Source of the DNA: a virus
Lineage: Duplodnaviria; Heunggongvirae; Uroviricota; Caudoviricetes
DNA length: 25,713 bases
Virus record (IMG/VR): IMGVR_UViG_3300029877_000014
Strand: one strand, 5' to 3'
Positions 7,007-25,713 of this stretch are shown piece by piece (within the stretch, counting starts at the first letter, position 1; every line of letters starts with the position of its first letter). Under the pieces are notes generated by a model. It had not been told where the DNA came from. It did not search any database and worked only from the letters and a program-made list of their open reading frames with translations. The position numbers and the translations under genes were made by a program.

Positions 7007-7455
7007 ATCGTATCCTGCTTCTGCTGCTCTTTACCCTGGGCGATGCTGGCTGCTTCTGCAAGGATCTGCCAGTACAACTCTGGATTCTGCTTAAGCAGCG
7101 CGATCCCTCGTTCTGGCGTATATTCCAGTGCAACCTCAGCACCATTAACCAGTTCACCAACCCCTTTCCAGTCTTTCAGCAGATAACGAGCAGCATTATC
7201 AATGAGTAAATCATCAACAGAATCTACCTCGGAAACCTTTGAAATATCAAACTCCTTCGTTCCGACGTGCAAACTGGCATCCATTTTCTCAATGTGACGA
7301 CGGATTAATGCATTACGGGAGCGATACTGATCGTTATCGCTGCTTGCCACCAACAGTTTTAACCCGTCTACAGGTTTTAAGTCCTTCATTGGCGTAAACC
7401 AGCGTTCTCCACCGATGATAATTTTCTGATTAAGAATAAACATCCATAACCTCAT
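6994..7455 (-). CDS. Tail assembly chaperone (lambda G-like)
   Basis: 153-aa ORF between the major tail protein and the tape measure; ends ...ATA AAA AAG CCA TAG, i.e. a slippery heptamer immediately before the stop. Confidence 0.7.
   Translation of the reverse strand: MRLWMFILNQKIIIGGERWFTPMKDLKPVDGLKLLVASSDNDQYRSRNALIRRHIEKMDASLHVGTKEFDISKVSEVDSVDDLLIDNAARYLLKDWKGVGELVNGAEVALEYTPERGIALLKQNPELYWQILAEAASIAQGKEQQKQDTIKKP
7000..7006 (-). promoter_or_regulatory. -1 programmed ribosomal frameshift slippery heptamer A AAA AAG
   Basis: Plus-strand cttttt t at 7000-7006 is AAAAAAG on the minus strand, in the X XXY YYZ register of the G-like gene, two codons before its stop. Confidence 0.65.
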
Positions 7456-7503
7456 TCAATGCGTCCCCCTGTAGTGCAGTACCACAGGGGGAATAACGGA
7501 AAA

Positions 7504-8466: not shown

Positions 8467-8492
8467 AGAAGCCTCCTATGTCATTAATTGCG

Positions 8493-8885
8493 CTAGAGCG
8501 CGCGATATGGAATTTGAAGATTAAGCTGGAACCAGCCATTCTTTTCGCCGACGGCTATTGAGGAAACAGCCTGGTAACTGAGACGATCGTCATCCTGAAA
8601 CTCAAACAGTTCCCGCAATTTATCGGCTGTCTCAGTAATGAGTTTTGAACCAGAACCTGCGGGGACAAATAACTGAATAATGATTATCCCCGTGCGATAA
8701 ACAACCGGCCCCGCGCCAATTTCATTAACCCCAGCCTGCCCGGGAATATTACTTAACCGCGCCCAGATTAACTTACCGGAAGGATCGAACGTTGGCCCGT
8801 TCGGATACAATACGTCTTTTCCATCAATAATCGTCTGTGCCGTCATTCTGGAAATAACCGTATTTCTGATTTCAGTAAACTTCAT
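8493..8885 (-). CDS. Tail terminator / tail completion protein (lambda U-like position)
   Basis: 130-aa ORF directly upstream of the major tail protein gene; assigned by synteny. Confidence 0.45.
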   Translation of the reverse strand: MKFTEIRNTVISRMTAQTIIDGKDVLYPNGPTFDPSGKLIWARLSNIPGQAGVNEIGAGPVVYRTGIIIIQLFVPAGSGSKLITETADKLRELFEFQDDDRLSYQAVSSIAVGEKNGWFQLNLQIPYRAL

Positions 8886-9262
8886 TTGTAAGCCTGTAAA
8901 ACACCATAAAAAGCGTTGGCATACACGCCAGTTGGCGCTTGTTGTGAATGACCGTTTTCAAGAGCCTCTGCATAAGGAAGGTTATTCTGGATATAAATAA
9001 CCCCGTAATTTGCAGCTTTCGAAATAACCCCGATCCCACGCTGAACAGCAATCGTACCGTTCGGATCCACGTTATCAGATATACCAAAATCGGGATGCTG
9101 TAACGACACCAGGTTGTTATTTCTGAAACGTCCGGTATCAACCGGAGCAGCAATATCAATAGCAGTAAGAATCTGCATAGCGATGTAGCGAATCTTCAGC
9201 CCTACATCTTCCTCAATCATCCCGGCAAATATTGACGGTTCTATATCCCATGCCTTTGCCAT
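8882..9262 (-). CDS. Head-tail joining / tail completion protein (HK97 gp10-like size and position)
   Basis: 126-aa ORF whose stop overlaps the next gene's start; assigned by synteny. Confidence 0.4.
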   Translation of the reverse strand: MAKAWDIEPSIFAGMIEEDVGLKIRYIAMQILTAIDIAAPVDTGRFRNNNLVSLQHPDFGISDNVDPNGTIAVQRGIGVISKAANYGVIYIQNNLPYAEALENGHSQQAPTGVYANAFYGVLQAYK

Positions 9263-9646
9263 TTACGCTCTCCTTAACTGGATAGAGTAAACTGATGCGG
9301 AAGGATCTAAACTTGCTGTAATTACCTCGTATCGTTGTAACTGCCTTGATACAGGATCATAAATCTCAATAATATGGTCGACAGCTGGTTTATCCGTAAC
9401 CTCGCATACCAGAGCGGTTAATTTAAGGTCACCATGCAAAATATTAATCCCATCAATTCTGCCCAGCTTATAACGTGTCAACACGCCTCGCCCGGTATAG
9501 ATTGCGGTGGATTCGCCGCCAGTTTCCGTCACAGGATCCCAGTGCCGGTGCGTAACGTAAGAACCAGAAAAATCACTCACGGCGTCCGCTAAATCCTCAT
9601 CAAAAGCAGCGGCAACCTCTGACTGAATCTCTTCACGAAGCCCCAT
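9263..9646 (-). CDS. Head-tail adaptor / head closure protein
   Basis: 127-aa ORF abutting its neighbours in the head-tail joining block. Confidence 0.4.
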   Translation of the reverse strand: MGLREEIQSEVAAAFDEDLADAVSDFSGSYVTHRHWDPVTETGGESTAIYTGRGVLTRYKLGRIDGINILHGDLKLTALVCEVTDKPAVDHIIEIYDPVSRQLQRYEVITASLDPSASVYSIQLRRA

Positions 9647-10041
9647 TATCCCCCCCTCACAACCCTGACTTGTGAGCGACTAAGTCCGTACGGTTTCAGC
9701 AGTGCTATCGCAAGCTGTAAATCGGGTTCAAGCAATGCAGTGCTGTTTGCTGGCAACTCAGAAAATGATTTCGATACACTGACCCCGTCAGCCGACACGG
9801 CTTTACTGATAACAACGCCAGAATCATTTTTCTGCTGAAACAACTTACCGAATGAGGCAATTCTGGCTGCATATGCTCCCGCAAGTTTTACCTCTTCCGG
9901 AATACGGGATGGGTTAATTTTCAGGTTGAAGCCATTAAGCCAGGCATTAGCCATTAAAACAGCTTTATTTTTAGCGTTCTCACTCGTCCAGGCGTTCCCA
10001 AACGCATTATCAACGTCATCACAGGTCACGTAAGTGATCAT
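9646..10041 (-). CDS. Head-tail connector protein (gp6-like position)
   Basis: 131-aa ORF downstream of the capsid gene region; assigned by synteny. Confidence 0.4.
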   Translation of the reverse strand: MITYVTCDDVDNAFGNAWTSENAKNKAVLMANAWLNGFNLKINPSRIPEEVKLAGAYAARIASFGKLFQQKNDSGVVISKAVSADGVSVSKSFSELPANSTALLEPDLQLAIALLKPYGLSRSQVRVVRGG

Positions 10042-10044
10042 GTG

Positions 10045-10221
10045 TTACTCCTGAGTTTTCCAGCCCATAGCCTTCCAGTTGTCAACTTCATCAGGATGAA
10101 CATTAGCGATAGTTGGTGCGCCGGGAAACATCTGATAATCGGTCACCATAACCACTAACTCAATTTGCGTTTTTTGTGCGGCTTCACGCTGTGCTCTTTG
10201 CTCTTTAGTTAATCCGGCCAT
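10045..10221 (-). CDS. Small hypothetical protein, 58 aa, not in the ORF track
   Basis: ATG at 10221 to TAA at 10045 translates to MAGLTKEQRAQREAAQKTQIELVVMVTDYQMFPGAPTIANVHPDEVDNWKAMGWKTQE. It fills the gap between the capsid gene and the connector gene, ending 3 nt before the next start. Confidence 0.35.
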   Translation of the reverse strand: MAGLTKEQRAQREAAQKTQIELVVMVTDYQMFPGAPTIANVHPDEVDNWKAMGWKTQE

Positions 10222-10230
10222 ATGCCCCCC

Positions 10231-10253
10231 ATTAAAAATGGGGCCGAAGCCCC
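10231..10253 (-). terminator. Terminator-like hairpin (GGGGC-UUCG-GCCCC followed by AUUUUUAAU) just after the major capsid gene
   Basis: Minus strand reads ggggc ttcg gcccc atttttaat, starting about 11 nt after the capsid stop. Confidence 0.45.
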
Positions 10254-10263
10254 GTTTGAATGT

Positions 10264-11403
10264 TTAACCAAGAATCAGACAACCATGTGCCGGCTTCACT
10301 GATGAAACACCCCATGCCAGTCCAACTTCATAGCGCACCTGGCGATACTGACGATACAGTGCAATCTGGAACGTAATCCCTGAAATCGGGTCCGTAACAT
10401 TCATTACATCATCAGCATTATCGCCACCTTCCGGCATTGCCGGAGTACGGGATGCCAGCAGAAACGCGTTGCGATCAAACGCCATATTTGCAGTAAAGGC
10501 CCCAACAACTGTGATGGCAGTATCATCGGCCAGATCCTGACGCAGTCCGGGCGCTGCAAGAGTAATCAGATTGCTGGTCGCTGCTGCCACAACATACTGA
10601 TTCGGATCACCAGCGAACGTAACAATCTGACCTGCAGAAATACTCCCCGAACCAGTATCAATGGAAATAAGAACATCGCCTTCTTTTTTCTCTCCATTCA
10701 CGAGATAACCAGTTGCAGCAACCTTTGGCGCTCGTTTCACACCTGCCGAACTGTGAATATTGAATCCCTCCAGACGCCCCAACACGCCCTCACGCAGTAG
10801 CTGTTCAGTGCCGGATTCATTCACTTTAAACAATACAGACTGTTTTCCGCGCAAATTAGCAATGGCAGTGGAGCCAAGCACCATCTGCAGATCGGTTGTC
10901 GGTGCGCCGTTATCCTCCAGAACCTGACGAGCCAGAGCAGCATCAGAAAGATCATCTTTAACACCAAACGGCGTTGTCCCTGCGGTTCCCACGGCGCGGG
11001 AAGCACCGAAATACAACGCACCAAGATCAGCCTCAACCTCGTTTGCAAGGGCGCGAAAAGCCTGCTTGAACTGATCAGCCAGAATGGTGTTGTAAGTCCC
11101 TGAAGGACCAAGAGCCAGTTGTTCTTCACCATTCCATTTAACCGGTGCCATTTTGGATTTAGTAATTTTTACATCAACAGTGCCAATATTTTGATCACCG
11201 GTATTCGGAGCTGACGGCCCCGGTACGATATCTTCGGTTTTCGCCTCAGGCGCAACTGGCGCGGTTACCGTCTGATCTTTTGCTGCGGCGTCAGCTTTTG
11301 CGTTTTTTGCTACCGCAGGGATAAAACCTACCTGCTCACGGGATACAACATCCAGGGCGGTATAAATAGTCGGGATCAACCCGGTCAGGGTATTTCCAGC
11401 CAT
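10264..11403 (-). CDS. Major capsid protein
   Basis: Large ORF after the scaffold gene. The track start at 11496 overlaps the scaffold stop; the ATG at 11403 (MAGNTLTGLIPT...) has an AAGGAA RBS and is the likelier start. Confidence 0.65.
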   Translation of the reverse strand: MAGNTLTGLIPTIYTALDVVSREQVGFIPAVAKNAKADAAAKDQTVTAPVAPEAKTEDIVPGPSAPNTGDQNIGTVDVKITKSKMAPVKWNGEEQLALGPSGTYNTILADQFKQAFRALANEVEADLGALYFGASRAVGTAGTTPFGVKDDLSDAALARQVLEDNGAPTTDLQMVLGSTAIANLRGKQSVLFKVNESGTEQLLREGVLGRLEGFNIHSSAGVKRAPKVAATGYLVNGEKKEGDVLISIDTGSGSISAGQIVTFAGDPNQYVVAAATSNLITLAAPGLRQDLADDTAITVVGAFTANMAFDRNAFLLASRTPAMPEGGDNADDVMNVTDPISGITFQIALYRQYRQVRYEVGLAWGVSSVKPAHGCLILG

Positions 11404-11501
11404 AATTAAATATTCCTTAAAAATTTGCGTAATTGTGAATAGATGGAGTAATGAGCTATCCAGCCCTGACACCAGCTCCCATCCGGAAGCTGACAAATGT
11501 G

Positions 11502-12266
11502 TTAATCAACGATTGTGATACCGTCTTTCAATGCGTTTTGCTTACCTGCAACATCCAGTGCATCAAAAGCAGAGCGTTTCATCGTTTTCTGACCAATATC
11601 ATGCTGTGTCGGACGGGAGCCGCCGCCATTGTTGCCACTGGCTTTCAGGATGTAGTCTTTCTGAGGGTAATTTTCGACAAGGAACTCCAGCGCCTCATCA
11701 AACTGCGCCAGTTCGCCAGGCTTCGCGCGGGAATAAATTTTGTTGCCGGAAGCGTCATAAGCAACGATCCTCCCTTCTTCCACTTTGAATGCCTGCCCGA
11801 AGCGTGATTGTAATAAATCTGCCGGGATCGCAATTTTATCGGCAATATATTTTGAACCCGCAAAACTACCGCCAATCATAGAATCGTAAAGCTGCTTCTC
11901 CAGCATCTGAGAGCGTTGCTTTTCTTCATCTAATTGCTGCTGAAAATTTTTCGTAATTTCTGCCTTAACCTGGTCAACCTGTCCCGCATCGAGCAGCTTT
12001 TTCTGGTCGATTTTTGACAGCATTTCCAGTGCCTCGATCGCCTTCTTCGGGTCTTCGATAGCGGCAAACTTAGCCAGTTTTTCCTCTGCAGCTTCTTTAG
12101 CCAGGCGATGATTTTTTGCCTCGCTATTAAGCTCTGTAATTTTTTTTGTCGCCAGCGGTGCATCGAAGCCAATTTCTTTACCATCGTCGTGCACATAAAC
12201 TGGCAGGCCAGCAGTATCAATTTCTGCGTATTGTTTTCCGTTAATCTCGACCGTTTTCAGTTTCAT
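11502..12266 (-). CDS. Scaffolding protein
   Basis: Charged, Lys/Glu/Ala-rich helical ORF between the head morphogenesis and capsid genes. Likely start is the ATG at 12266 (MKLKTVEINGK..., RBS AGGTA); the track's extension to 12338 would run through a terminator-like hairpin. Confidence 0.55.
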   Translation of the reverse strand: MKLKTVEINGKQYAEIDTAGLPVYVHDDGKEIGFDAPLATKKITELNSEAKNHRLAKEAAEEKLAKFAAIEDPKKAIEALEMLSKIDQKKLLDAGQVDQVKAEITKNFQQQLDEEKQRSQMLEKQLYDSMIGGSFAGSKYIADKIAIPADLLQSRFGQAFKVEEGRIVAYDASGNKIYSRAKPGELAQFDEALEFLVENYPQKDYILKASGNNGGGSRPTQHDIGQKTMKRSAFDALDVAGKQNALKDGITIVD

Positions 12267-12326
12267 ATTAGTACCTGGTTTAAGTCTTCCGACAGTTACG
12301 CTGCTCACCATCCGGATCGCAGCAAT

Positions 12327-12351
12327 AAAAAAGGCCACCCGAAGGTAGCCT
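12327..12351 (-). terminator. Terminator-like hairpin (GGCUACC-UUCG-GGUGGCC followed by UUUUUU) between the head morphogenesis and scaffold genes
   Basis: Minus strand reads aggctacc ttcg ggtggcc tttttt attgctg; stem has one mismatch. Confidence 0.5.
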
Positions 12352-12370
12352 GTTGTAATAAATGATTTAT

Positions 12371-13486
12371 TTAAATCCCTGCTTTTCTGAATACCTGTGC
12401 ATCACGCTCACGGAGCTGCTTCAGCGTCAGCCATTCGCCTTTATCGGTGTAAAATTCATCTGGCGACATACCACCATCCCGAATCAGCTTTGCTCGGGTT
12501 TCCCCCACAATCTGTTTTTGTCTGGTGTAAGGCTGACGCAAAAACCATTCCCTGTAGGTTGTATCTCCGGCCACCACGCCATCCATGCTGGCCCGCTCAG
12601 CCGGGGAAATATCGCGAACATCAATACCCAGTTCCTTCGCTGATTTCAGAATGAACGTTTCCGTTGAGCGGCAGCAGAAATGAATTTTTCCCGGCCCCTG
12701 CAAATAAGGCACGCTGTGACCTACAGGTTTATTATTCAGCGTATATTTGAGGCGATCCCTGATTCGACATTGTGGCGTAGTACGATTATCAAGCGTTGAT
12801 AACCATTGCTTACCCTTAATCAAATCATTATTCGCGCTGGCAAAACTCTCACGGGCAGTAGCAGCAAGATGTCCAACCGCTGTTTTTGCAATGCTGGCCG
12901 CATTAGCCCGGCTCATCTGCAATGCACCATCCTGAAATCCCTTACTGACATGTCCCCGAATTTTTCTTGCGATCTGCTCATTGGTATCCCCCAGCAAAAA
13001 ACCCTGACGCACTGTATTTGTTATGCGTCTGAGCCGATCCGCCTCAAGATCTGAGGCCCACTCACTGAGCAGTCGTCCCTGAAATGGTCGCGCCATTGCA
13101 GCGGCATAAAGTGCATCAGGAGAGATACCAACCAGAGGGTGAACATCAGCAACAAAATCAGGTAGCATAGAATCAAACAGACTTAACTGATAACCAGCCT
13201 CATAAATTGCCAGCTCGTTCAGCTCTCCGGAGAGACTGGTAAACATGCTGTTAATAGCAGTGCGGTTAACCTCTCTGACGCTCGCCAGAAGTGACTCCAG
13301 GCGCTTAACGGTAAAACTACCTGGATCGAGGCTGTCCAGTGCTATCAGCAGGCGAGCAGTAAGTTCCGCATCGCTGTCATTCAGTATTTTCACCATTCTG
13401 GCAGCCACGCCAGTGCTATAGCGGGATATCCAGACTGCATGAGCAATTGATTCATCACGCAGCCGTTCATTCACGGTTTGCATCAT
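12371..13486 (-). CDS. Head morphogenesis / minor capsid protein (Mu F / SPP1 gp7-like)
   Basis: 371-aa ORF directly downstream of the portal gene, overlapping it by 20 nt; assigned by position and the Cys/His-containing C-terminal region. Confidence 0.55.
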   Translation of the reverse strand: MMQTVNERLRDESIAHAVWISRYSTGVAARMVKILNDSDAELTARLLIALDSLDPGSFTVKRLESLLASVREVNRTAINSMFTSLSGELNELAIYEAGYQLSLFDSMLPDFVADVHPLVGISPDALYAAAMARPFQGRLLSEWASDLEADRLRRITNTVRQGFLLGDTNEQIARKIRGHVSKGFQDGALQMSRANAASIAKTAVGHLAATARESFASANNDLIKGKQWLSTLDNRTTPQCRIRDRLKYTLNNKPVGHSVPYLQGPGKIHFCCRSTETFILKSAKELGIDVRDISPAERASMDGVVAGDTTYREWFLRQPYTRQKQIVGETRAKLIRDGGMSPDEFYTDKGEWLTLKQLRERDAQVFRKAGI

Positions 13487-14873
13487 TGATTTCCATCAGC
13501 ATTACACTCTGATTTTTTAATTCATCGATCACTTCCTCTGGACGGGAATCCTGATCGATAAATTTCAACGCCTGCAACACCCGAATCGCATCAATCTGAC
13601 GTATATCACCGCCCTGACGCAATGACTGAACAGCCAGCGCGGAGGATGAGTCAAACACCTGGGCAGATACATCCAGTTCAGTGCGCACATCCACATTGCC
13701 ACCGCAACTCTCTCCGATCCATTCCGCCATTATCTGGAGAATATTATCGAGGGCATCTTCGAGGGAGTTCGCCATTGTATAAAGCGGCGAGTTTTCCTGC
13801 ATTCGCTCTTCATTAGTCTGATCAACAGATTTGGTGGATGTATTTTCAGCACGCAGAAGTTTAGCGCCGGCATGACGCATCTGATTTTCCAGCTTCTCAA
13901 GTGATGTTTCGCCAGATTCTATCGCTGCGCCACTATGTTCAACATATTCGAGGCCATTTTTTGTTCTGTCCTCAAAAATCGTAGCGGTGGATGCACCAAC
14001 CGTCAGTTCTTCATTCCTGTCCAGCCCGTAGGCCACCAGCAATGGAACGCGGGCAACATGAAGAATATTGTCCTGCTCGCTCTGGCTTTGCCAGTGCTTG
14101 ATATTCAGCAAGCCAAGATTAAGCAATGGCGGTGTACCACGCATAAATCCTGTTTTCTTCGTGTACAGTGTTACCAGAGGAATATCATCACGGCTGGTAT
14201 TCCATGACTCATGAAGCGTCCAGACAGATTCGCCATTAGTGCCTTCGCTACGTCGATAAATTTCAACTCGACGGGGCATAATATGGCGGATCTGCTCCAC
14301 CTTCTTCTGCCCGAAATCATCACCATCAATAATGATGACCTCTTTTATACGCAAATCAGTGAGAACAACTTTCCCTTTTTCAACTTTCGATTTCCATCCA
14401 ATAACCTGGCGTGGATTCAGCATCGTAACGTACGGACGACTACCGGCCGCGTTTTCATCGGCTTTTGTCCGAATCTCTTTCATATCCGTTCGTGGATAGT
14501 CCACCAGCGCATGTGCCACACCATACTGAAATGCGAGGCTGAAAAATTGCTGCGCCCACACATCCAGTCGGCTTCCCTCCATGTCGATATTTTCTGCATA
14601 TTCTCTGATTTTTGCCGGCGTTTCCTCACTCAATACTGTCGGCTCTGCAAATATGCGCCCAATATTTTGCTTGATGCTTTCTTCATACACAGGAAGTAGC
14701 GTAGCCACAGACAGGCGTTTTTTATAAGCGTCTTCATCTTCGTTAGGCCATTTTGGGAGATAATTTTCCCCCTGCCTGCGCATTTCAAGCGTACCGCCCA
14801 TCAGTGCGTCGTTAATATCCCACGCCTCCAGCATATCGTTATAGTCGAGGTTGGGTGTTGATATATCAGCCAT
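13467..14873 (-). CDS. Portal protein
   Basis: 468-aa ORF immediately downstream of the large terminase (3-nt gap); size and position are canonical. Confidence 0.7.
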   Translation of the reverse strand: MADISTPNLDYNDMLEAWDINDALMGGTLEMRRQGENYLPKWPNEDEDAYKKRLSVATLLPVYEESIKQNIGRIFAEPTVLSEETPAKIREYAENIDMEGSRLDVWAQQFFSLAFQYGVAHALVDYPRTDMKEIRTKADENAAGSRPYVTMLNPRQVIGWKSKVEKGKVVLTDLRIKEVIIIDGDDFGQKKVEQIRHIMPRRVEIYRRSEGTNGESVWTLHESWNTSRDDIPLVTLYTKKTGFMRGTPPLLNLGLLNIKHWQSQSEQDNILHVARVPLLVAYGLDRNEELTVGASTATIFEDRTKNGLEYVEHSGAAIESGETSLEKLENQMRHAGAKLLRAENTSTKSVDQTNEERMQENSPLYTMANSLEDALDNILQIMAEWIGESCGGNVDVRTELDVSAQVFDSSSALAVQSLRQGGDIRQIDAIRVLQALKFIDQDSRPEEVIDELKNQSVMLMEINDANRE

Positions 14874-14875
14874 AA

Positions 14876-16186
14876 TTAAATCCGAAGTGATGTGACTCTT
14901 CCGGTCGGTTTGACAATAGGGAATTGCTTAACGATGAAATAACCTCCGGCATCATTCGGGTGATCATTGCCAGATTTTTTATCAGGCTCCCCCTTCTCAT
15001 CCCAGACCTGTTGCTCCAGAGATTCGGCATATAACGGGCAACGCTTCACATTAACTTTATAGCGACGCTCACCATTGGCATTGCAGAACATTGCATTCAT
15101 TGAGTTAACGCGATCTTTTACTGGCGGGTTCGAGCTGTTCACCACAACGTTAAAACCAGCCTGCTTAAGCTGGGCTATATCCGTCGTACTTGCGTTACTT
15201 GATTTTCTGGAATCCCCGGAAGCATCTGGATAAATATAAATTTCCCTCACTTTCCGGTAATCATTCCCATCATACAGCCAGAAGCGTTCTTTAATGATGC
15301 GGATCATATCCGGCGTATCGTAGGCATTGATGATTTCAGTTACCGCACATGGAAGCCCCAAACGCAGCACATGGACGATTCCCGCCATCTTTCCAACGTT
15401 AAAATCCATCCCAATATAAATCGGCTCCCCTGGCTGCTCCACTTCTTCGCAATTATTCAGTTTCCGGTCAAACTGATGGTAAACAGTACCACTTGTCAGG
15501 TTAGTAAACTGTCCTCGCAGATAGGCTTTAATCAGCTCTGGAGGGTATGATTCAAGAAGCGAAGGAATGTAATCTGCTGGCAGGTTCTTTTCATTATCGA
15601 AAGTAGATGCCTGCACCAGACCATACAGTGAGGCCAGCTCTGTTTTTTCACGCACGGCTTTAACAAACTGCTCGTAGACAAATTTGAATCCTTCCGGCGT
15701 GGTTGTAACGTCAATACCGTTGCGAAGTCCATCAATCTTATAACGCATACGCGCAATTATCTTGCGCCACGCCGTTCTGGCTTTTTCCTTCGGCAAAATG
15801 TCCAGTTCATCCACCAACGCATTACCAATTTTGAAACCGACGATCGTTTGTGGCTTCTCCATCGATCTGCAGATAGTGGTTCCCCGATACTGGCGTCCGT
15901 AATAAAAGTGAACCTCTTTATTTCCCTCATTAATTTTTACGTTCAATCCCCAGTCAGCAGCAACTTCTTCCACTGTAGGGTAAAAAATATCGCGAATTTG
16001 GGGATACGTTGGCGCAAAATATCCCTGATTTATACCTGGATGCTCCCAAATCCCCTTGCATATGCCGCCACACCCAACCCATGTTTTGCCCGAGCCAAAA
16101 CCAGCAATATAGGCTTTAAATTTATGGGGCATTGAAAGAAATCGCGCCTGAGGCACATTAAGCGTCGGAGAGATCATCTTCATCAC
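14876..16186 (-). CDS. Terminase large subunit
   Basis: 436-aa ORF with a Walker A-like motif (AGFGSGKT) near the N-terminus and an acidic nuclease-type C-terminal half. Confidence 0.85.
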   Translation of the reverse strand: MMKMISPTLNVPQARFLSMPHKFKAYIAGFGSGKTWVGCGGICKGIWEHPGINQGYFAPTYPQIRDIFYPTVEEVAADWGLNVKINEGNKEVHFYYGRQYRGTTICRSMEKPQTIVGFKIGNALVDELDILPKEKARTAWRKIIARMRYKIDGLRNGIDVTTTPEGFKFVYEQFVKAVREKTELASLYGLVQASTFDNEKNLPADYIPSLLESYPPELIKAYLRGQFTNLTSGTVYHQFDRKLNNCEEVEQPGEPIYIGMDFNVGKMAGIVHVLRLGLPCAVTEIINAYDTPDMIRIIKERFWLYDGNDYRKVREIYIYPDASGDSRKSSNASTTDIAQLKQAGFNVVVNSSNPPVKDRVNSMNAMFCNANGERRYKVNVKRCPLYAESLEQQVWDEKGEPDKKSGNDHPNDAGGYFIVKQFPIVKPTGRVTSLRI

Positions 16187-17252
16187 TCCTTACTCTGGCA
16201 TCAACCACATTAATATTGATCGCCACAGGCTGGGGATGTTCATTATCTTCCACCGTTTCGATCTCTTTGCGCAGCTTCTGGTTTTCCATTCTGCGCCGTT
16301 CAATTTCCAGTTCCTGTAGCCGCTTATCTGCACATAAAGCCCCGCCAGCAGAAAGCAAACGCAACAATTCACGCCGGGCGGCAGCCTTATCCTCCAGCAG
16401 GATCTCAACGCCGAATTTTCCGAATTTTGCCCCTGCATATAATTGCCGCGCATCCCCATCAAGCAGAGTGGTATCAGCCATATAAAGCTGTCCCGTTCCC
16501 TCACCGCAGCACTTCGGGCAGTCCGGATTGGGTATGGCGTTATCAACAAAGCCGAGGCCTCCATATTCCGGTTCGGGTTTGCCATCTCTGGAAGCCTGCG
16601 CCGCTGCCTTGTCGAATTCTGCTATATCGCGCCACTGGTAGAGATGATTCTCGCCCCAGCAATAACGGCAGTTAACACGGCGAAATTGTGCAAGCTGATT
16701 GGGGTCGGCCAGGACAATAGCCATCAACTGACTCACTAGTAAATCCAGGTCTGCGGTATAGCGTTTCTGGTACTGATTGCGGAAGTAGCTGATAGCGCGA
16801 AAAACCCTGGCATTTCTAAGCATACGACTGGCGTTGCTGTTAGCTGTCGCACCTTGCCCCTCATAACCGGCTAGTCGGTACGCCTCTGTCGGCTTTTTAC
16901 CCTGAGCAACAAGCATCGCAAACTTAGCCTGCTGGTCAGAAATGCCGAATTCATCGGGACAGAACGAAAATTCCTCCGCGTCGCCCTCATTCAGGCCCGC
17001 ATCGAATACTGGCTTTTTTTCCTGAGATTTTTCGTTCCGCTTTTGTGCAGTCTGCGCAGATTTTTTCTGCGCACTTTTTTGCGCAGTTTTGCACATTTCT
17101 GTCTGCGCATTTTTCGGAGTTTTTTTGATGTAACGACGGGCTGTTGCGTAATTCAGTCCCCTTGCTTCACACCATGCCACCGGAGATATACCGGAGCGGG
17201 TGTATTCAGCAATATACTCCTGCTGCAACGCCCCCCAGTCCGGTCTGCTCAT
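16158..17252 (-). CDS. Terminase small subunit (N-terminal HTH, low-complexity Lys/Gln/Ala linker, Terminase_2-like core)
   Basis: 364-aa ORF directly upstream of the large terminase; contains ...KPTEAYRLAGYEGQGATANSNASRMLRN..., typical of small terminases as I recall the family. Confidence 0.6.
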   Translation of the reverse strand: MSRPDWGALQQEYIAEYTRSGISPVAWCEARGLNYATARRYIKKTPKNAQTEMCKTAQKSAQKKSAQTAQKRNEKSQEKKPVFDAGLNEGDAEEFSFCPDEFGISDQQAKFAMLVAQGKKPTEAYRLAGYEGQGATANSNASRMLRNARVFRAISYFRNQYQKRYTADLDLLVSQLMAIVLADPNQLAQFRRVNCRYCWGENHLYQWRDIAEFDKAAAQASRDGKPEPEYGGLGFVDNAIPNPDCPKCCGEGTGQLYMADTTLLDGDARQLYAGAKFGKFGVEILLEDKAAARRELLRLLSAGGALCADKRLQELEIERRRMENQKLRKEIETVEDNEHPQPVAININVVDARVRSDEDDLSDA

Positions 17253-17255
17253 CAG

Positions 17256-17507
17256 TTAGTCCTGATTTTTATCCACCCTGAGTAGTTCGCGCAGAGCAAA
17301 GGCATCCCCTTTTCTGGCAAGCTTAAACAATGCCGCTCGTAACTCGGCTTCACCTTTCGCTCTGCCCTTACGGATGGCCGCATAAAAATCTGTCATTGCT
17401 TCCCGATTTTCTTTCAGTCGGTTCAGATCAACATCCAGAACGTCAGCGATTTGTTGTGCAGTCATCCGGCACGCTGCCAGAGACTCGACTTTCGAATACG
17501 GAATCAT
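17256..17507 (-). CDS. Small hypothetical protein (83 aa, possible HTH)
   Basis: ORF overlaps the 3' end of the 317-aa gene by 65 nt, so the true start may be an internal Met (e.g. MTAQQIADVLDV...). Confidence 0.3.
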   Translation of the reverse strand: MIPYSKVESLAACRMTAQQIADVLDVDLNRLKENREAMTDFYAAIRKGRAKGEAELRAALFKLARKGDAFALRELLRVDKNQD

Positions 17508-18396
17508 TTGTCACCCCCATTGATATGCAGGGTGTCTTCTTCCTGTATTTTTCGTGAAGGATTTTTACTGCAGCGTTGTTCCAGGTGACCTGATGGTGAA
17601 TGCGTTTATGGCTGGCACCCATCAGTGAGATTTTTACGCACGACGGCGCATACATGACGGAGTAAAAACTTTTAACGTAGGTTCCGGAATCCAGATACAG
17701 CTCGGTCATTCCGCCGCTGTTTTTCTGCGTCTGTTTCTGCCCTAACTGGACAGCACCGATCGTCATAAACAATTCACCACAGCGACCGAGATTCGTGTAC
17801 GTATTCACATCCTCGTTAATGCGCCCCATGAATGAGAACGGTCGATCAACCGAACAGATAAAGCTGTTCATTGCCTTGCGTTTCACCCACGAAGCATGGC
17901 CGCCATTGTCACCAAGAAAATCCCCGCCCTGCGACATAGCGATGGAAAGAGCAGGTATTGATTCGTAGTACGCCAGCATTTCAGAAAGGATCGCATCCAG
18001 TTTCCTTATCGGAAAATAGGCCTGGTCATAGTTGCGATCCACCCGAAACTGGAACTCGTGATAATCATCATCGAGCTGAATGAAGTATTTACACCCGACC
18101 AGTTTTGCCAGGTCGAAACAGGCATTACGGGCGTAAAAAATTGAGCGGCGGTCACAGAAATTATCGGCTTCGTCAAAACGACTGGCGATATCGGCTTTGG
18201 AAAACACCAGCACCTGTTCACCAAATTCAGCCATGTACTGATTCCGTGTCTTATCTTCATCATCAACAACGATAAAAATTTTCCCGGTATAGCCAGCACG
18301 ACGCAACGTCCGGTAAGTCAGAACTTTGTCCGGTCGCCCGTGAGTCAGAATAAAGGCGCAAAAATCATCACGCATATTCCTCCTCCTCACCACCAT
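17443..18396 (-). CDS. Hypothetical protein, 317 aa; weak resemblance to a GT-A-type nucleotide-sugar transferase (DxD-like QLDDDYHEF)
   Basis: Long ORF tightly coupled to the upstream ParB-like gene. The Rac ydaY locus is, from memory, at the corresponding position. Functional guess is motif-level only. Confidence 0.45.
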   Translation of the reverse strand: MVVRRRNMRDDFCAFILTHGRPDKVLTYRTLRRAGYTGKIFIVVDDEDKTRNQYMAEFGEQVLVFSKADIASRFDEADNFCDRRSIFYARNACFDLAKLVGCKYFIQLDDDYHEFQFRVDRNYDQAYFPIRKLDAILSEMLAYYESIPALSIAMSQGGDFLGDNGGHASWVKRKAMNSFICSVDRPFSFMGRINEDVNTYTNLGRCGELFMTIGAVQLGQKQTQKNSGGMTELYLDSGTYVKSFYSVMYAPSCVKISLMGASHKRIHHQVTWNNAAVKILHEKYRKKTPCISMGVTNDSVFESRVSGSVPDDCTTNR

Positions 18397-19159
18397 GCAT
18401 GATCTCCACCATGCGCTGCGTCATCCGGACAAATCCATTTTCAATAGCCTGCTGATAATCAATGATCACCAGCGCCGACTCCTCGAAAAAACACTGAATT
18501 TCAGAGGGGGCGTGAGCGTAATAGTCCGCAATTCTGCTGAAATTAAACACCGTGTGACGTTCTGCCGCACACAGGAGGAATTTCTCAATATCAGGCTCAA
18601 GGGACGCCGAACGTATCCGGCTGATCAGCTCCTGAGTTTTCGTATCGTCGTACAGTTCACTGATATCCGGTTTACCGCCCGACGGCTCATAAACAGGCGT
18701 ATCAATTTTCGTCGTATACGGCTCCTCCTCATTTCCTGTACCGGGCAAAACATCCGTCAACAGTTCATCAATTTCTGTCGGGATGAAGCCTGTCAGGGAG
18801 ACATCAAAATCAGCATTGATTAGGTCCGACAGCTCCATCCGCAACAGATCTTCATCCCAGCCAGCATTCATCGGCAGGCGATTATCTGCCAGGCGGTACG
18901 CCTTTTTCTGCTCATCCGTCAGGCCAGACAGAACAATGACCGGAACAGAATCCATTTTGAGCATTTCAGCCGCCATAACACGACCGTGACCCGCAATAAT
19001 TTCGCCCTTTTCGTCAATCAGCACCGGATTAGTCCAGCCGAATTGCTTAATACTTTCTACCAGTTGTGCCACCTGCTCAGGGCTGTGCGTCCTGGCGTTG
19101 TGCGCATACGGTGACAATTCTTGTAATGGGCGATAGACTATCTTTAATTTCTCGCTCAT
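18368..19159 (-). CDS. ParB-like nuclease-domain protein (ParB/Srx N-terminal fold)
   Basis: 263-aa ORF with ...NPVLIDEKGEIIAGHGRVMAA..., the GxxR-type ParB N-terminal motif; acidic C-terminus. Confidence 0.75.
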   Translation of the reverse strand: MSEKLKIVYRPLQELSPYAHNARTHSPEQVAQLVESIKQFGWTNPVLIDEKGEIIAGHGRVMAAEMLKMDSVPVIVLSGLTDEQKKAYRLADNRLPMNAGWDEDLLRMELSDLINADFDVSLTGFIPTEIDELLTDVLPGTGNEEEPYTTKIDTPVYEPSGGKPDISELYDDTKTQELISRIRSASLEPDIEKFLLCAAERHTVFNFSRIADYYAHAPSEIQCFFEESALVIIDYQQAIENGFVRMTQRMVEIMHGGEEEEYA

Positions 19160-19296
19160 ACAGCCTTGCTTTATGAATAAAACGCACCCCAGCAGCCAGT
19201 GCTACTGGGGACGGAGGGGTTGCTGGTAAAGTTAGGTATTGGATCAATGAGTGAGTCAACATAATATTAAACTCACAATTATAAATCAGCCATATA

Positions 19297-20754
19297 TTAG
19301 GAGCGCCAAAAAAAACCTGAAAACAATATAATAACAGGATAAATTTCAAGGCGACCAAGAATCATAGCTATGCACATTAAACATTTTGCAATGTCATTAA
19401 GCACTCCGAATGACGATGCAGTAGCCCCAAAACCTAATCCCATATTATTAATACATGCAGCCACTGTTGCAAATGATGTAAGAAAATCATATCCCATACC
19501 ATTTAACACCAGTATAAAAAACACCGTGAAGAGAGTATAAAGAAAAAAGAAACTCCATACAGACCTCATTACACGATCTGTAACTATCTTCCCTCCTACA
19601 TTTACACTCAACAACGCTCTGGGATGAGAAAGCTGATTTATCTCGTGTTTGCTTTGTTTGAAAAGTATAAGAAATCGAAGTGACTTAATTCCACCACAAG
19701 TTGAACCTATACATCCCCCAAAGAAACTTGACAACAGCAAAAACACTATCGTGTGCGTGGGCCAACTTGCATAATCCTGCGTAGCTAAACCATTATCAGT
19801 GAGCATGGAGCTGGCAAGAAAAAACGAATGAATAAAACTTCCATGCAAGTCATACATACCTATATGCCAGACCTGGAAAGAGGTAACAATGATCACCCCT
19901 AAGGCTATTAACAGAAAGAAACGAAGTTCAATATCTCTGATTAAAGGTTTTATCGTTTTCCTGCTAATAACAATATACCAAAGAGTGAAGTTGAAAGCCG
20001 ATAGCAGGGAAAAAGAACCAGCCACCAGCTCAACCAAATAGTTATTAAAATATCCGATACTCTCGCTATGAGTTGAGAAACCACCAAGCGAAACTGTGGA
20101 AATCCCGTGACAAATAGCATCAAACAAAGGCATTCCTGCAAGTCTATAACAGACAATACAAGCAATACCTAATAAAGAATAAGTTATCCACAGTGTCCGT
20201 GACGTATCGGCCAGGCGGGGAGTGAGTTTGTCATCCTTAAATGGCCCCGGCATTTCTGACTGATAAAGCTTTGCACCACCAATACCCAATAATGGCAATA
20301 CAGCAACCGCCAGAACAATAACTCCTAAACCACCTATAAAATTTAACTGTGACCGATAGTACAAATATGCCCGAGGTAATGAACTAACATCATCAATTAC
20401 AGTTGCTCCTGTTGTTGTTATTCCAGAAACCCCTTCAAACAGAGCATCAATGAACGTTAAATTAAGTTCTGAGTCAATCCATAAAGGGAATGCACTAATA
20501 ACAGAAAACAAAATCCAAAACATTACAATTATAATAAACCCATCACGGGTACGTAATTGAATGCCAGATTTCTTAGTTGTATACCACGCTCCGCCACCAA
20601 TGCAAAAAAATATAACGAAAGTTATAAAGAAAACGAACAGGCTTTTTTCTTTATAAAACAATGCTACAACCATTGGTGGCAACATTGAAAGACTATAGAG
20701 CCAAACCAGGAACCCACACATATGAGTAACAACTCTTACATGAGATGTATTCAT
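19297..20754 (-). CDS. trkG: TrkH-family potassium uptake membrane protein TrkG
   Basis: Polytopic membrane protein starting MNTSHVRVVTHMCGFLVWLYSL... from the first ATG at 20754 (the track start at 20772 is TTG); matches E. coli TrkG as I recall it. Visibly AT-rich relative to flanking phage genes. Confidence 0.85.
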   Translation of the reverse strand: MNTSHVRVVTHMCGFLVWLYSLSMLPPMVVALFYKEKSLFVFFITFVIFFCIGGGAWYTTKKSGIQLRTRDGFIIIVMFWILFSVISAFPLWIDSELNLTFIDALFEGVSGITTTGATVIDDVSSLPRAYLYYRSQLNFIGGLGVIVLAVAVLPLLGIGGAKLYQSEMPGPFKDDKLTPRLADTSRTLWITYSLLGIACIVCYRLAGMPLFDAICHGISTVSLGGFSTHSESIGYFNNYLVELVAGSFSLLSAFNFTLWYIVISRKTIKPLIRDIELRFFLLIALGVIIVTSFQVWHIGMYDLHGSFIHSFFLASSMLTDNGLATQDYASWPTHTIVFLLLSSFFGGCIGSTCGGIKSLRFLILFKQSKHEINQLSHPRALLSVNVGGKIVTDRVMRSVWSFFFLYTLFTVFFILVLNGMGYDFLTSFATVAACINNMGLGFGATASSFGVLNDIAKCLMCIAMILGRLEIYPVIILFSGFFWRS

Positions 20755-20891
20755 ATCTAAATATTCTTTCAATTATAACCACCTTGCTGCAATATTATGA
20801 TTATACTGTATAAAATTTAACTCCTCTTAGATCTTACTTCACTGTTCCTTATGAAACAATCATCAAAATGAATCATATTGTAGTTAAGATT

Positions 20892-21356
20892 TTACTTTAA
20901 ACACTGCTCGGTTATGTATTGCTGAGCACCTTCAAGTTGGGCCTGCATCATTACCAGTCGTTCCCGGAGGGTGAAATAATCCCGTTCAGCGGTGTCTGCC
21001 AGTCGGGGGGAGGCTGCATTATCCACGCCGGAGGCGGTGGTGGCTTCACGCACTGACTGACAGACTGCTTTGATGTGCAACCGACGACGACCAGCGGCAA
21101 CATCATCACGCAGAACATCATTTTCAGCTTTCGCATCAGCTAACTCCTTCGTGTATTTTGCATCGAGCGCAGCAACATCACGCTGACGCATCTGCATGTC
21201 AGTAATTGCCGCGTTCGCCAGCTTCAGTTCTCTGGCATTTTTGTCGCGCTGTTCTTTGTAGGCGATGGCGTTATCACGGTAATGATTAACAGCCCATGAC
21301 AGGCAGACGACGATGCAGATAACCAGAGCGGAGATAATCGCGGTTACTCTGTTCAT
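20892..21356 (-). CDS. Rz: Inner-membrane spanin Rz
   Basis: Start [21 protein letters not shown]... at 21356 forms an ATGA overlap with the endolysin stop; N-terminal TM helix then coiled coil. Confidence 0.8.
20951..21136 (-). CDS. Rz1: Outer-membrane lipoprotein spanin Rz1, embedded in Rz in the +1 frame
   Basis: 61-aa ORF entirely inside Rz: signal peptide with lipobox ...LVVVGC, then a proline-rich mature part ([16 protein letters not shown]). Confidence 0.75.
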
Positions 21357-21850
21357 TGCTGACCCCACAAACAGATTTCACGCTCAATCTCACGACGAGT
21401 CATGAGACCTTTCCATTGCTTACCGCCAGCATATGTCCAGCGACGTAGCTGATCACATGCGCCTTTGATATCGCCCTGGTTTATTTTGCGAAGAAGCGTC
21501 GATGTTCTGAAATTGCCAGCACCCACGTTGTAAACGAATGAGTAAAGAGCGCCGCGCGTTGTTTCCGGTATATCGACTTTGATGTACGGGTTAATTTGTC
21601 TGGCGACCGTGGCAAGGTCTTTATTCAGGAGGGCTTTGCATTCTGCTTCGGTATACGTTTTACCGGGAATGATGTCTTTTCCGGTGTGTCCGTGACATAC
21701 AGTCCATACACCAACGATATCTTTATATGGTATGTAGCTGACACCTTCCAGACCATCGTTACCACTTGGGCCAGTGATTAACACTGATGCTATAGCAATT
21801 GCTCCGCCACCAATAGCAGCAGCAACGGCTTTTCGTAATGATGGAGGCAT
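21353..21850 (-). CDS. R: SAR endolysin (lysozyme with N-terminal signal-anchor-release domain)
   Basis: [39 protein letters not shown]... : weakly hydrophobic Gly/Ala-rich N-terminus followed by a lysozyme catalytic region; matches phage 21 R as I recall it. Confidence 0.85.
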
Positions 21851-22839: not shown

Positions 22840-22914
<75 letters not shown>

Positions 22915-22917
22915 ATA

Positions 22918-22993
<76 letters not shown>

Positions 22994-24775: not shown

Positions 24776-25047
24776 TTCTTAATCTCTCGATGGCGCAGCG
24801 CAGCAGATGCCAGTTGTTCAGGCTGACGTATGAAGTATAAATAAACTGGCTCCAGTGTAAAGCCCCACCTTAATGGAATAAAAACCAAAAAACAGATTGC
24901 TGGGATACAAACAACGCTTATTATTAAAAGCGGTTAAACAAATTAAATTTTAATGTTATGCAAATCTGCCAGATCACCATAATATCTCATTTGAAAACCG
25001 CTGAAATAACAACCCTATCAGGGTTAATCATATTAAGGTGAGTAAAT

Positions 25048-25134
25048 ATGGAAAACAACAAATCTGCACATTACGTTCCTTTTTTATCTATAATACTTTT
25101 TGTATTTTGTTGTGTATGGGCGGTATTTTTATAA
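25048..25134 (+). CDS. Small hydrophobic peptide, 28 aa (MENNKSAHYVPFLSIILFVFCCVWAVFL), on the opposite strand to all neighbours
   Basis: ATG at 25048 preceded by AAGGTGAG at 7-nt spacing; single predicted TM helix; stop TAA at 25132-25134 followed immediately by a perfect hairpin. Below the track's length cutoff. Confidence 0.4.
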   Translation: MENNKSAHYVPFLSIILFVFCCVWAVFL

Positions 25135-25150
25135 AACACACCCACAAATA

Positions 25151-25178
25151 AATCAAACCCGCTACAGCGGGTTTGATT
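25151..25178. terminator. Bidirectional terminator-like perfect palindrome (12-bp stem AATCAAACCCGC / GCGGGTTTGATT, loop TACA) between convergent genes
   Basis: Read from sequence; flanked by T/A-rich sequence on both strands. Lies between the peptide stop (25134) and the 102-aa gene stop (25189). Confidence 0.5.
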
Positions 25179-25188
25179 TATATAGTTG

Positions 25189-25497
25189 TTATACGGAAAC
25201 TGGCACACGAGCAGGCAATGGATAGTGAGCCCAGTTATTAGCATTTAAAGCTCTTACGCCATCAGCATAAACTTGTGTGTTTCCATCTAATGATTTTAAA
25301 GTTACTACAATAGTTACAGGTAAAGGCTCCATTAAGGCCGGTTCATTCGCTCTCAACGTTGTTTTAGCCTGAAGAGCCCAGTTACCCGAAGTAATTCCTT
25401 TATTAAATGCCTTGCGATGAATTTTTACTGGTGACCACTTTCCACCATGCTCAATTTGAGCTCTCTCATATCCAGATTGACCGTTTTCTCCTTCCAT
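25189..25497 (-). CDS. Hypothetical protein, about 102 aa, AT-rich gene
   Basis: ATG at 25497 with RBS AAGGAAAAG (the track's start at 25503 is GTG). The same frame stays open upstream to a TGA at 25660-25662 without any ATG/GTG/TTG, so the real start is uncertain. No recognisable motifs. Confidence 0.4.
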   Translation of the reverse strand: MEGENGQSGYERAQIEHGGKWSPVKIHRKAFNKGITSGNWALQAKTTLRANEPALMEPLPVTIVVTLKSLDGNTQVYADGVRALNANNWAHYPLPARVPVSV

Positions 25498-25713
25498 AGG
25501 CACTTTTCCTTTTATAGTATTATTCTCAATTAAGCCAAAACTTAGCTCTACGTTCGCGCGAACATATTCACTGCCGGCATTAGGGTTCAGTGGTGGTGCA
25601 TATGCAGCAGTAATGGCTTTGTTGAATAAATCGAACTTTTGCTGAGTTGAAGGATCAGATCACGCATCCTCCCGACAACACAGACCATTCCGTGGCAAAG
25701 CAAAAGTTCAGAA

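Follow-up and report, generated by a model that had tools for sequence, protein, structure and literature searches.

Two paralogous Trk subunits of Escherichia coli K-12 have been compared in detail. TrkH is the main Trk system, and TrkG, which shares the TrkA partner with TrkH, needs Na+ for K+ uptake (PMC9898762). In the same comparison trkG was expressed at a level similar to that of trkH and was able to replace it, while the Na+ uptake by TrkG was of no help for salt tolerance (PMC9898762). Deletion of hns raised the amount of trkG mRNA (PMC9898762). TrkG thus differs from TrkH in being Na+-dependent, Na+-permeable and H-NS-repressed, and the two genes differ in GC content as well, with 38% in trkG against 53% in trkH (PMC9898762). 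The location of trkG in the Rac prophage and its low GC content are traced to a 1991 paper, in so far as that work is represented by its citation in PMC9898762. Further, genomic SELEX in K-12 placed a constitutive RpoD (sigma-70) promoter in front of trkG, and its authors concluded that trkG entered Rac together with its own promoter (PMC5811629). Related prophages carry other genes in the corresponding slot, namely borD in DLP12 and the LT-IIa toxin genes eltIIaAB in Rac-SA53.

Here we analyse a trkG locus in a viral sequence of 25,713 nucleotides (IMG/VR record IMGVR_UViG_3300029877_000014), the whole of which we call the window. We propose, with a probability of roughly 0.92, that the segment 19160-20891 belongs to a lambdoid E. 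coli prophage of the Rac family and is its trkG cargo gene ("moron"). It would represent a transcription unit, rich in AT and acquired horizontally, that consists of a promoter spacer, the gene for the transporter and, as terminator, a strong hairpin, and K-12 Rac would be the deleted form of the same element. The finding is real, already known and ordinary: full-size Rac-like prophages appeared in the literature in 2016-2018, the promoter was reported in 2018, and the work on transport and H-NS control dates from 2022.

The TrkG protein and the Rac late region

The gene had been described in the earlier note as a full-length TrkH-family member and as trkG, and both descriptions hold. Its product is identical to K-12 TrkG (b1363) at 485/485 residues (100%). 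The Pfam TrkH (PF02386) match, with E = 5e-145 and 484 bits (cut-off 27), spans profile positions 3-500 of 502, which makes the protein a full-length member of the family. TIGR00933 is matched with 415 bits (cut-off 331). On the TrkH equivalog NF008020 the protein scores 449.7 bits, under the cut-off of 866, and the gene is therefore a TrkG paralogue rather than TrkH. TrkG shares fold family and length with the E. coli core paralogue and with Vibrio parahaemolyticus TrkH, and the solved Vibrio structures (3PJZ, 4J9U) align with it over the full length at E = 1.2e-120. Conserved pore loops and the gating loop are common to TrkG and Vibrio TrkH, as is the TrkA partner to TrkG and TrkH (PMC9898762). 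Four pore-loop glycines (TTTG116, SLGG224/225, TDNG322, NNMG439) match the Vibrio motifs, and the glycine-rich intramembrane gating loop FFGGCIGSTCGGIK (residues 344-357), of the form GGxxGSTxGGxK, aligns with its Vibrio counterpart. D327, implicated in the Na+ dependence of TrkG (PMC9898762), is present five residues past G322. No trkA gene lies within the 25.7-kb window.

Comparison with K-12 Rac gave a match of 99.67% over 2431 bp with 8 mismatches (window 21336-18906, Rz'-rzoR-trkG-ynaK'), after which the alignment resumes, collinear, at window 7345-5588 (98.6% over 1760 bp). Because the K-12 alignment jumps over 11.56 kb (window 7345 to 18906), the window holds terminase, portal, capsid and tail genes that are deleted in K-12. 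The neighbours and the orientation of trkG are identical in both elements; the differences lie on either side. In K-12, ynaK is cut by the deletion to 87 aa, with the break at 18906, against 263 aa here. In the window ynaK is followed by glycosyltransferase, terminase, portal, capsid and tail genes, which K-12 has lost. On the upstream side the window has holin, endolysin and full Rz, of which K-12 retains no more than the rzpR pseudogene. Each of the 22 major ORFs found in the window is intact, including those of the region missing in K-12. The earlier statement that this is a complete relative of the defective K-12 Rac is upheld, with the intact ORFs as the sole basis for "complete".

The window matches the EcPF14 and ON470595 records at 99.8-100%. 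In complete genomes, near-identical copies of the segment are located in prophages of the Rac type. The EcPF14 prophage also carries the Rac immunity and recombination genes, with racR-ydaS-ydaT-ydaU-ydaV, kilR, sieB and recE, and in ON470595 intR adjoins ttcA. Ten phage database records were considered as inducible virions and rejected, since they are PHASTER-predicted prophages; one of the ten includes the flanking host genes abgABT and ttcA. Of 5426 complete E. coli genomes, 1552 contain the trkG segment, 675 have the undeleted late region (with no less than 80% of the window covered) and 348 show the K-12 deletion junction. Judged by the alignments, the window has the Rac late region in its undeleted state, and K-12 Rac is what remains of this element after the loss of 11.56 kb. 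The K-12 deletion is thereby mapped exactly, and the undeleted late region is commoner than the deletion junction among complete E. coli genomes.

Table 1. Features of the trkG segment and its neighbours (window coordinates)
Feature	Position	Strand	Basis or remark
ynaK-like ParB/Srx N-terminal-domain (ParB_N) protein, 263 aa, full length	18368..19159	-	Pfam
3' intergenic spacer holding the hairpin, 41.6% GC	19160..19296	-	composition, E. albertii comparison
Terminator-like hairpin, 10-bp stem, 4-nt loop, then UGCGUUUUAU	19187..19210	-	folding
trkG CDS (K-12 annotation, ATG start at 20754, 485 aa)	19297..20754	-	TrkH-family (SKT) K+ transporter subunit
AT-rich spacer from Rz stop to trkG, 137 bp, 25.5% GC	20755..20891	-	putative promoter region
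Candidate alternative start TTG 20772-20770 with Shine-Dalgarno AAGGTGG 20785-20779, 6-nt spacer	20770..20785	-	would give 491 aa
Perfect TATAAT, best-conserved -10 candidate, without good -35	20800..20805	-	inference
Rz (i-spanin)	20892..21368	-	Pfam Phage_lysis 4e-53
Rz1, embedded in Rz	20951..21136	-	Pfam Rz1 2e-19

Base composition, relatives and selection

The segment had been called AT-rich by eye, and calculation agrees: its GC content is 37.4%, against 48-52% in the flanks (ynaK 49.7%, Rz 52.2%, left 5 kb 48.3%). No other part of the window of this size is as poor in GC: the minimum over all stretches of 1732 bp, 36.9%, lies at 19221, and the mean is 47.3% with sd 3.5%. The trkG CDS itself has 38.1% GC and 32.3% GC3, while GC3 of the neighbouring genes ranges from 0.41 to 0.67. 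The codon comparison points the same way, with trkG having the highest rare-codon fraction of the 22 genes in the window. GC3 is the most depressed codon position, so the AT bias is synonymous. The amino-acid content of a membrane protein was considered as its cause and ruled out, since GC3 reaches 0.72 in an Enterobacter homologue with 70% identity. The measurements support that trkG is compositionally foreign to its neighbouring genes.

Chromosomal genes of the TrkG clade occur in E. fergusonii, Citrobacter, Pectobacterium, Enterobacter, Buttiauxella and Morganella; they are full length and 61-79% identical. Those at 70-79% identity lie in chromosomal contexts, not in phages. In the four genera checked, the genes differ from trkG in occupying housekeeping neighbourhoods and not prophages: they follow pth-ychF in Pectobacterium and Morganella, lie close to parC in Enterobacter and have non-phage genes around them in Buttiauxella. 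GC of the nearest chromosomal relatives is 42-57%, most of them having native GC (47-57%). Among GTDB species representatives, scanned by exact peptide words and hence with a chance of missing donors, only Escherichia copies were found (E. coli, E. ruysiae and E. albertii at 93-100%, and a decayed Shigella copy) before the next relatives, Buttiauxella at 68% and Morganella at 61-63%. Apart from partial E. albertii entries, a search of 5.8 billion proteins returned no sequence in the gap from 79% up to the E. coli cluster. A direct donor was thus not found in the GTDB representatives or the 5.8 billion proteins, the closest relatives outside Escherichia being at most 77% identical. A presumed second, 57%-identical low-GC paralogue in Shigella flexneri was rejected: with 96.5% nucleotide identity and 49 gaps, it proved to be the same gene in the form of a pseudogene.

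The copy in E. albertii resides in a non-Rac remnant and matches window 20934-19293 only. Comparison of this allele with that of E. coli gives dN/dS of 0.047 at dS 0.93, which speaks for long-term purifying selection on the TrkG protein, and GC3 is about 0.32 in both. The last observation bears on the origin of the AT-richness. Instead of being the trace of recent import from a low-GC source, it may be maintained, either for H-NS control or by a phage-specific mutational bias. Such an explanation is helped by the fact that the two alleles differ at about half of synonymous sites and still agree in GC3, by the lack of any low-GC donor closer than 79% in the searches above, and by the GC of the nearest chromosomal relatives. 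However, the same pattern would result if one unsampled low-GC lineage had donated the gene twice, independently, and the donor search is weakened both by its use of exact words and by the many metagenomic matches that carry no organism label. We regard maintained AT-richness as rather doubtful.

One can also imagine trkG as neutral, a piece of a foreign chromosome captured by illegitimate recombination, kept solely through its linkage to the prophage, largely silenced by H-NS and of no benefit to either host or phage. H-NS does repress trkG, TrkH is dominant, and Na+ uptake brings no growth advantage (PMC9898762). Further, the Shigella flexneri copy has decayed, IS1 and IS5 insertions lie inside the trkG segment of some genomes, and near-100% identity over about 1500 genomes may mean recent spread rather than selection. 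The dN/dS value is hard to reconcile with neutrality, and so is the retention of the gene: K-12 kept it despite the adjacent 11.56-kb deletion, and it persists in the E. albertii remnant and on conjugative plasmids. K-12 trkG is, moreover, expressed about as much as trkH and substitutes for it (PMC9898762). A neutral trkG is in our opinion unlikely.

Candidate signals upstream and downstream of trkG

The assignment of a promoter and of H-NS binding to the upstream spacer rests on identity to K-12 DNA and on the published K-12 data. Positions 20636-21114, which cover the whole spacer, show 0 mismatches to K-12. The spacer is thus likely to be an H-NS binding region here too. The earlier note had proposed an AT-rich promoter region at this place. 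Its AT-richness is evident, and the promoter is backed by the K-12 identity together with SELEX (PMC5811629); the consensus scan does not back it, with 5 sites in the region against 5.8 expected in shuffled sequence. Since the scan is no better than shuffles, the promoter is AT-rich and plausible when judged from the letters alone. The TATAAT hexamer (20805-20800) is kept in the upstream regions of E. albertii and E. fergusonii.

The annotated ATG of trkG may be mis-set, the real start being a TTG 18 nt upstream. The corresponding ORF (19297-20772, - strand, 491 aa) encloses the annotated ATG. Homologues of 491 aa from Pectobacterium, Pantoea and Enterobacter start at the position aligned with the TTG, and the Pectobacterium gene has TTG at the aligned start as well, without a downstream Met. 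N-terminal extension and start position of the chromosomal TrkG-clade genes agree with the TTG reading. The length of the PHROG family profile is also 491, and the 485-aa TrkG covers its positions 7-491.

Downstream of trkG, a hairpin had been noticed at 19186-19209. It was found 1 nt away from this position, 87 nt past the trkG stop and 27 nt ahead of the ynaK start, with the sequence CCCCAGUAGCAC-UGGC-UGCUGGGG (10 pairs) followed by UGCGUUUUAU. Its folding energy is -22.5 kcal/mol (z = -5.3), compared with only -15.3 on the + strand. Among all 40-nt stretches on the window's - strand it ranks second in fold stability, and only 0.04% of them fold as stably. The U-tract that follows is weak. 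By its predicted fold the hairpin is a strong structure resembling an intrinsic terminator. The 3' spacer that holds it is absent from the E. albertii cassette, because homology ends at 19293. An Rfam scan of the whole window returned two tRNAs only and no known RNA family in the trkG spacers.

The cargo slot and the probable role of trkG

Rz/Rz1 close the lysis cassette and border the cargo slot on its upstream side, ynaK is the downstream neighbour, and trkG stands at this lysis/packaging junction in the orientation of the late genes. Its placement between Rz/Rz1 and a ParB-like gene, as described earlier, is borne out by the Pfam matches, and all of these genes are on the - strand. Homology to the DLP12 lysis cassette (essD-rrrD-rzpD) stops at 20902, and the next gene in DLP12 is borD. 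Together with the limits of the E. albertii match and the terminator hairpin, this end serves to mark out the trkG unit. Lambda bor, DLP12 borD and the LT-IIa genes of Rac-SA53 occupy the same slot as trkG, after lysis and before packaging genes, and are likewise cargo unrelated to phage growth. There are two differences. Firstly, borD encodes a lipoprotein and the LT-IIa genes an enterotoxin, whereas TrkG belongs to the 12-TM class of ion transporters and depends on a partner encoded by the host. Secondly, transcription of borD runs the opposite way.

The label "moron" that the segment had received is favoured by its composition and its terminator hairpin, but it gains nothing from a search for the empty site. 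A 937-nt query with the 5' part of ynaK joined to Rz, for which a match meant at least 80% coverage, found Rz fused to ynaK in 0/5426 complete E. coli genomes. Insertion between two otherwise adjacent genes thus stays a supposition for this slot. Direct or inverted repeats flanking the trkG segment, which would be a sign of transposition, were looked for, and short AT-rich chance matches were all that appeared.

With its late-operon orientation and its position next to Rz/Rz1, trkG should be transcribed by Q-modified RNA polymerase. This leads to explanations that involve the phage. One of them combines maintained AT-richness with function, the cause being either selection for H-NS control or a phage-side role exerted through late-operon read-through; we consider the combination quite improbable. 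The most far-fetched alternative, that trkG serves the phage by controlling K+/Na+ flux or membrane potential from the late transcript (for example, in holin triggering or in replacing K+ lost on infection), can appeal to the co-orientation with the late operon, the abutting Rz/Rz1 and the constant linkage to the lysis/packaging junction in E. coli, yet it is purely conjectural, and we hold it to be very improbable, given that a constitutive promoter and a terminator of the gene's own are the signature of prophage-state expression, that K-12 Rac keeps trkG though holin and endolysin are lost, and that borD and LT-IIa toxin genes fill the same slot in related phages. With such unrelated cargo, a place in the slot is no argument for a function in lysis.

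We therefore return to trkG as prophage cargo, for which the following model can be drawn. The unit would be lodged directly after Rz/Rz1, co-oriented with the late operon. In a lysogen, trkG would be transcribed from its own sigma-70 promoter, as shown in K-12 on identical DNA, and H-NS/StpA on the AT-rich DNA would damp, rather than silence, this transcription, as they do in K-12. The TrkG membrane subunit would then join the TrkA gating ring of the host, again by analogy with the identical K-12 protein. The resulting TrkG-TrkA complex would provide a second, Na+-dependent route of K+ uptake that admits Na+ too, as it does in K-12. During lytic growth, Q-antiterminated late transcription would presumably run on through trkG and past the terminator of the unit to reach ynaK and the genes for terminase.

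Taken together, the value of these results is mainly for annotation, in the flagged start codon, the map of the K-12 deletion and the cargo slot. As to the family, the Rac-type lysis/packaging junction appears as a recurrent cargo slot, which has received trkG, borD and LT-II toxin genes.

The trkG gene, its composition and expression

The segment 19160-20891 contains a single long open reading frame (- strand, 19297-20772, TTG start). Translated from the start annotated in E. coli K-12 (ATG at 20754), it yields a 485-aa protein that gives an end-to-end hit to Pfam TrkH (E = 5e-145) and is identical to K-12 TrkG (b1363) at 485/485 residues, as expected of the full-length TrkH-family gene trkG proposed in an earlier note. 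TrkG passes the TIGR00933 TrkH-subfamily cut-off and lies far under that of the TrkH equivalog (450 vs 866 bits). Solved Vibrio TrkH structures align along its full length (E = 1.2e-120), and it contains all four pore-loop glycines (G116, G224/225, G322, G439), the glycine-rich gating loop and D327, a residue tied to Na+ dependence (PMC9898762).

The annotated start is possibly mis-set. The TTG at 20772, 18 nt 5' of the annotated ATG, follows a Shine-Dalgarno sequence at ideal spacing, 491-aa homologues begin where it aligns, and the PHROG profile of the family has length 491. A Pectobacterium homologue has TTG at the same place and lacks the downstream Met. Judging from these sequence features, the real TrkG may be 491 aa long.

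Features of the trkG segment, its surroundings and comparison DNA (window positions unless a handle precedes them)
Feature	Position	Strand	Remark
Candidate trkG start with strong Shine-Dalgarno	20770-20785	-	AAGGTGG, 6-nt spacer, TTG
Candidate -10 in trkG spacer	20805-20800		perfect TATAAT
Hairpin 3' of trkG	19187-19210		10 pairs, 4-nt loop, then UGCGUUUUAU; -22.5 kcal/mol, z = -5.3
ynaK (263 aa, ParB/Srx) and PF20691 'TET-associated glycosyltransferase'	17443-19159	-	pair just upstream of terS
tRNA-Thr(UGU), tRNA-Gly(UCC)	22840-22993	-	between Q-type antiterminator and holin
Hairpin just past tail-tube gene stop	7459-7498	-	very stable, likely terminator; -22.2 kcal/mol
Hairpin past iteS	25144-25183	-	very stable, U-rich tail, likely terminator; -21.6 kcal/mol
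iteS, 3' part (window end)	25189-25713	-	per EcPF14 annotation
E. albertii NBRC 107761 trkG allele	L005 5819-7462		GC3 0.32
S. flexneri trkG copy	L021 6001-7423		in Rac-like prophage
Plasmid-borne trkG fragment	L032 8580-11411; L033 8580-11411		= window 18739-21570
sitABCD operon of EcPF14	L002 850-4299		outside the window

The AT-richness noticed by eye was borne out by calculation. GC content is 37.4% in the segment, vs 49.7% in ynaK and 52.2% in Rz; the trkG CDS has 38.1% GC and GC3 of 0.32, and the 137-bp upstream spacer 25.5% GC. Among all 1732-bp windows of the 25.7-kb sequence, the lowest in GC (36.9%, ~3 sd under the mean) starts at 19221, and none of the others among the 22 main genes has a GC3 as low as that of trkG or uses as many E. 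coli rare codons in proportion. Hydrophobic protein content is ruled out as the source of the bias, because the bias is located at synonymous positions and an Enterobacter homologue 70% identical to TrkG has GC3 of 0.72. The two tRNAs encoded nearby decode ACA and GGA, both often used in trkG (10/31 Thr and 13/42 Gly codons). Low GC (34-37%) is also found in the spacer by iteS (24800-25400).

The hairpin reported after the trkG stop is real, 1 nt off its earlier coordinates. The sense strand folds better than the opposite one, and equally good folds occur in 0.04% of 40-nt windows on its strand. As to the putative AT-rich promoter region, the AT-richness stands; a consensus scan gave 5 sites vs 5.8 expected, so sequence statistics do not confirm a promoter. 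Reading by eye, we found a candidate -10 with no good -35, kept in the upstream regions of E. albertii and E. fergusonii. Because the protein and upstream DNA are identical to those of K-12, published K-12 experiments apply directly. Genomic SELEX with RpoD holoenzyme placed the trkG promoter among the few constitutive ones inside K-12 prophages, and its authors concluded that trkG came into Rac along with its own promoter (PMC5811629). In hns and hns stpA mutants trkG mRNA rises, full silencing being absent; K+ uptake via TrkG needs Na+, which is conducted too, and TrkG shares TrkA with TrkH and can replace it (PMC9898762).

Gene neighbourhood and relation to Rac

Upstream of trkG, on the same strand, lie the Q-type antiterminator region, the two tRNA genes, a P21-type holin, lysozyme and Rz with embedded Rz1. 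Directly downstream follows ynaK, which is intact here and encodes, unlike in K-12, a full-length protein with a ParB/Srx domain, so that trkG sits between Rz/Rz1 and the ParB-like gene as first described. Next come a glycosyltransferase of the TAGT family, a small ORF related to terminase, and then TerS, TerL and the portal, capsid and tail genes. Since all share one orientation, we suggest that after prophage induction polymerase modified by Q would pass the hairpin and transcribe ynaK and the packaging genes.

The glycosyltransferase also belongs to phrog_842, annotated beta-glucosyl-HMC-alpha-glucosyltransferase. Lactobacillus phages phiLdb, c5 and jlb1 encode a ynaK-like ParB protein (~40% identical, >90% coverage), and the gene that overlaps or comes after it is again annotated as this glycosyltransferase. 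Both phiLdb and c5 have the ParB-like gene at the genome start. Possibly the pair is a conserved accessory module for DNA modification or packaging.

K-12 Rac matches window 21336-18906 at 99.67% identity with eight mismatches: two are in trkG, both synonymous, one is just outside the hairpin and none is in the upstream spacer. The alignment stops at 18906 and picks up again at 7345-5588; K-12 Rac therefore has an 11.56-kb deletion with exact end points at 7345 and 18906, which joins the first third of ynaK (87 aa) to ydaY. The lost glycosyltransferase, terminase, portal, capsid, head-tail and tail-tube genes are all open reading frames here. Two records matching the window at 99.8-100% carry Rac-type genes: EcPF14 has the racR-ydaS-ydaT immunity region, ydaU, ydaV, kilR, sieB and recE, and ON470595 additionally recT, ralR and intR beside ttcA. 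Gene content thus supports the suggestion of a complete relative of Rac but is no evidence of viability, and the ten "phage" records with the trkG segment are PHASTER predictions out of genome assemblies. Rac-like prophages of full size have been described before (Jobling, PMC5917428). Of 5426 complete E. coli genomes, 1552 contain the trkG segment, 675 contain 80% or more of the 25-kb window and 348 the K-12-type ynaK'-ydaY junction.

Going by the EcPF14 annotation, the window ends inside the 3' part of iteS, the S8 peptidase gene of the prophage-borne IteAS anti-phage system, between replication genes and the Q region. Just past the tail-fibre end of the EcPF14 prophage, the iron/manganese transporter operon sitABCD adjoins an integrase fragment; it is either a further piece of transporter cargo or an adjacent islet.

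Cargo slot, origin and spread

Homology to the essD-rrrD-rzpD lysis cassette of prophage DLP12 (94.3%) ends at 20902, ~ten bases short of the end of Rz; in DLP12, borD comes next in place of trkG. In Rac-SA53, a full-size Rac-like element at ttcA that has only TerS and the Q region in common with the window, LT-IIa enterotoxin genes lie between endolysin and terS. The slot that follows the lysis genes has therefore taken up cargo repeatedly. Rz joined straight to ynaK was found in 0/5426 complete E. coli genomes, so insertion between adjacent genes is not seen in this set, and no flanking repeats pointing to transposition were found around trkG.

TrkG forms a clade separate from TrkH and spread across Enterobacterales (E. 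fergusonii 79% identity, Citrobacter 77%, Pectobacterium 75%, Pantoea 73%, Enterobacter 70%, Buttiauxella 68%, Morganella 61-63%). Where checked, these genes are chromosomal, with housekeeping neighbours, and the GC content of most is native; no direct low-GC donor of trkG was found. The E. albertii copy (93% identical protein, 84% DNA) occupies a non-Rac locus, flanked by copD/yebZ-side genes on one side and by an NleF-like effector gene, pphA and rsmF on the other. Its homology is limited to window 20934-19293, including 42 nt of the Rz 3' end, and this copy is therefore also phage-derived. The S. flexneri copy has no intact ORF; the stretch around it matches the window at 96.5% with 49 gaps, and the gene is a decayed pseudogene.

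A 2.8-kb piece (98.7% identical) that spans the 5' end of ynaK, trkG, Rz and some of the lysozyme gene has moved onto 15 plasmids, from Citrobacter freundii, Klebsiella, Enterobacter and E. coli; 12 of these plasmids are typed as conjugative. Both plasmids that were inspected are IncA replicons, in which the piece sits amid other prophage scraps beside IS26; on the Citrobacter plasmid its surroundings also include an arsenic resistance operon and transposons of the Tn3 family.

Taken together, the trkG observation is confirmed and its interpretation supported. Everything essential about the segment is already published. AT-richness has lasted across the deeply diverged E. coli and E. albertii alleles, with GC3 ~0.32 in both, and might itself be maintained. 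As estimated from these two sequences, dN/dS of 0.047 at dS 0.93 shows long purifying selection on the TrkG protein.
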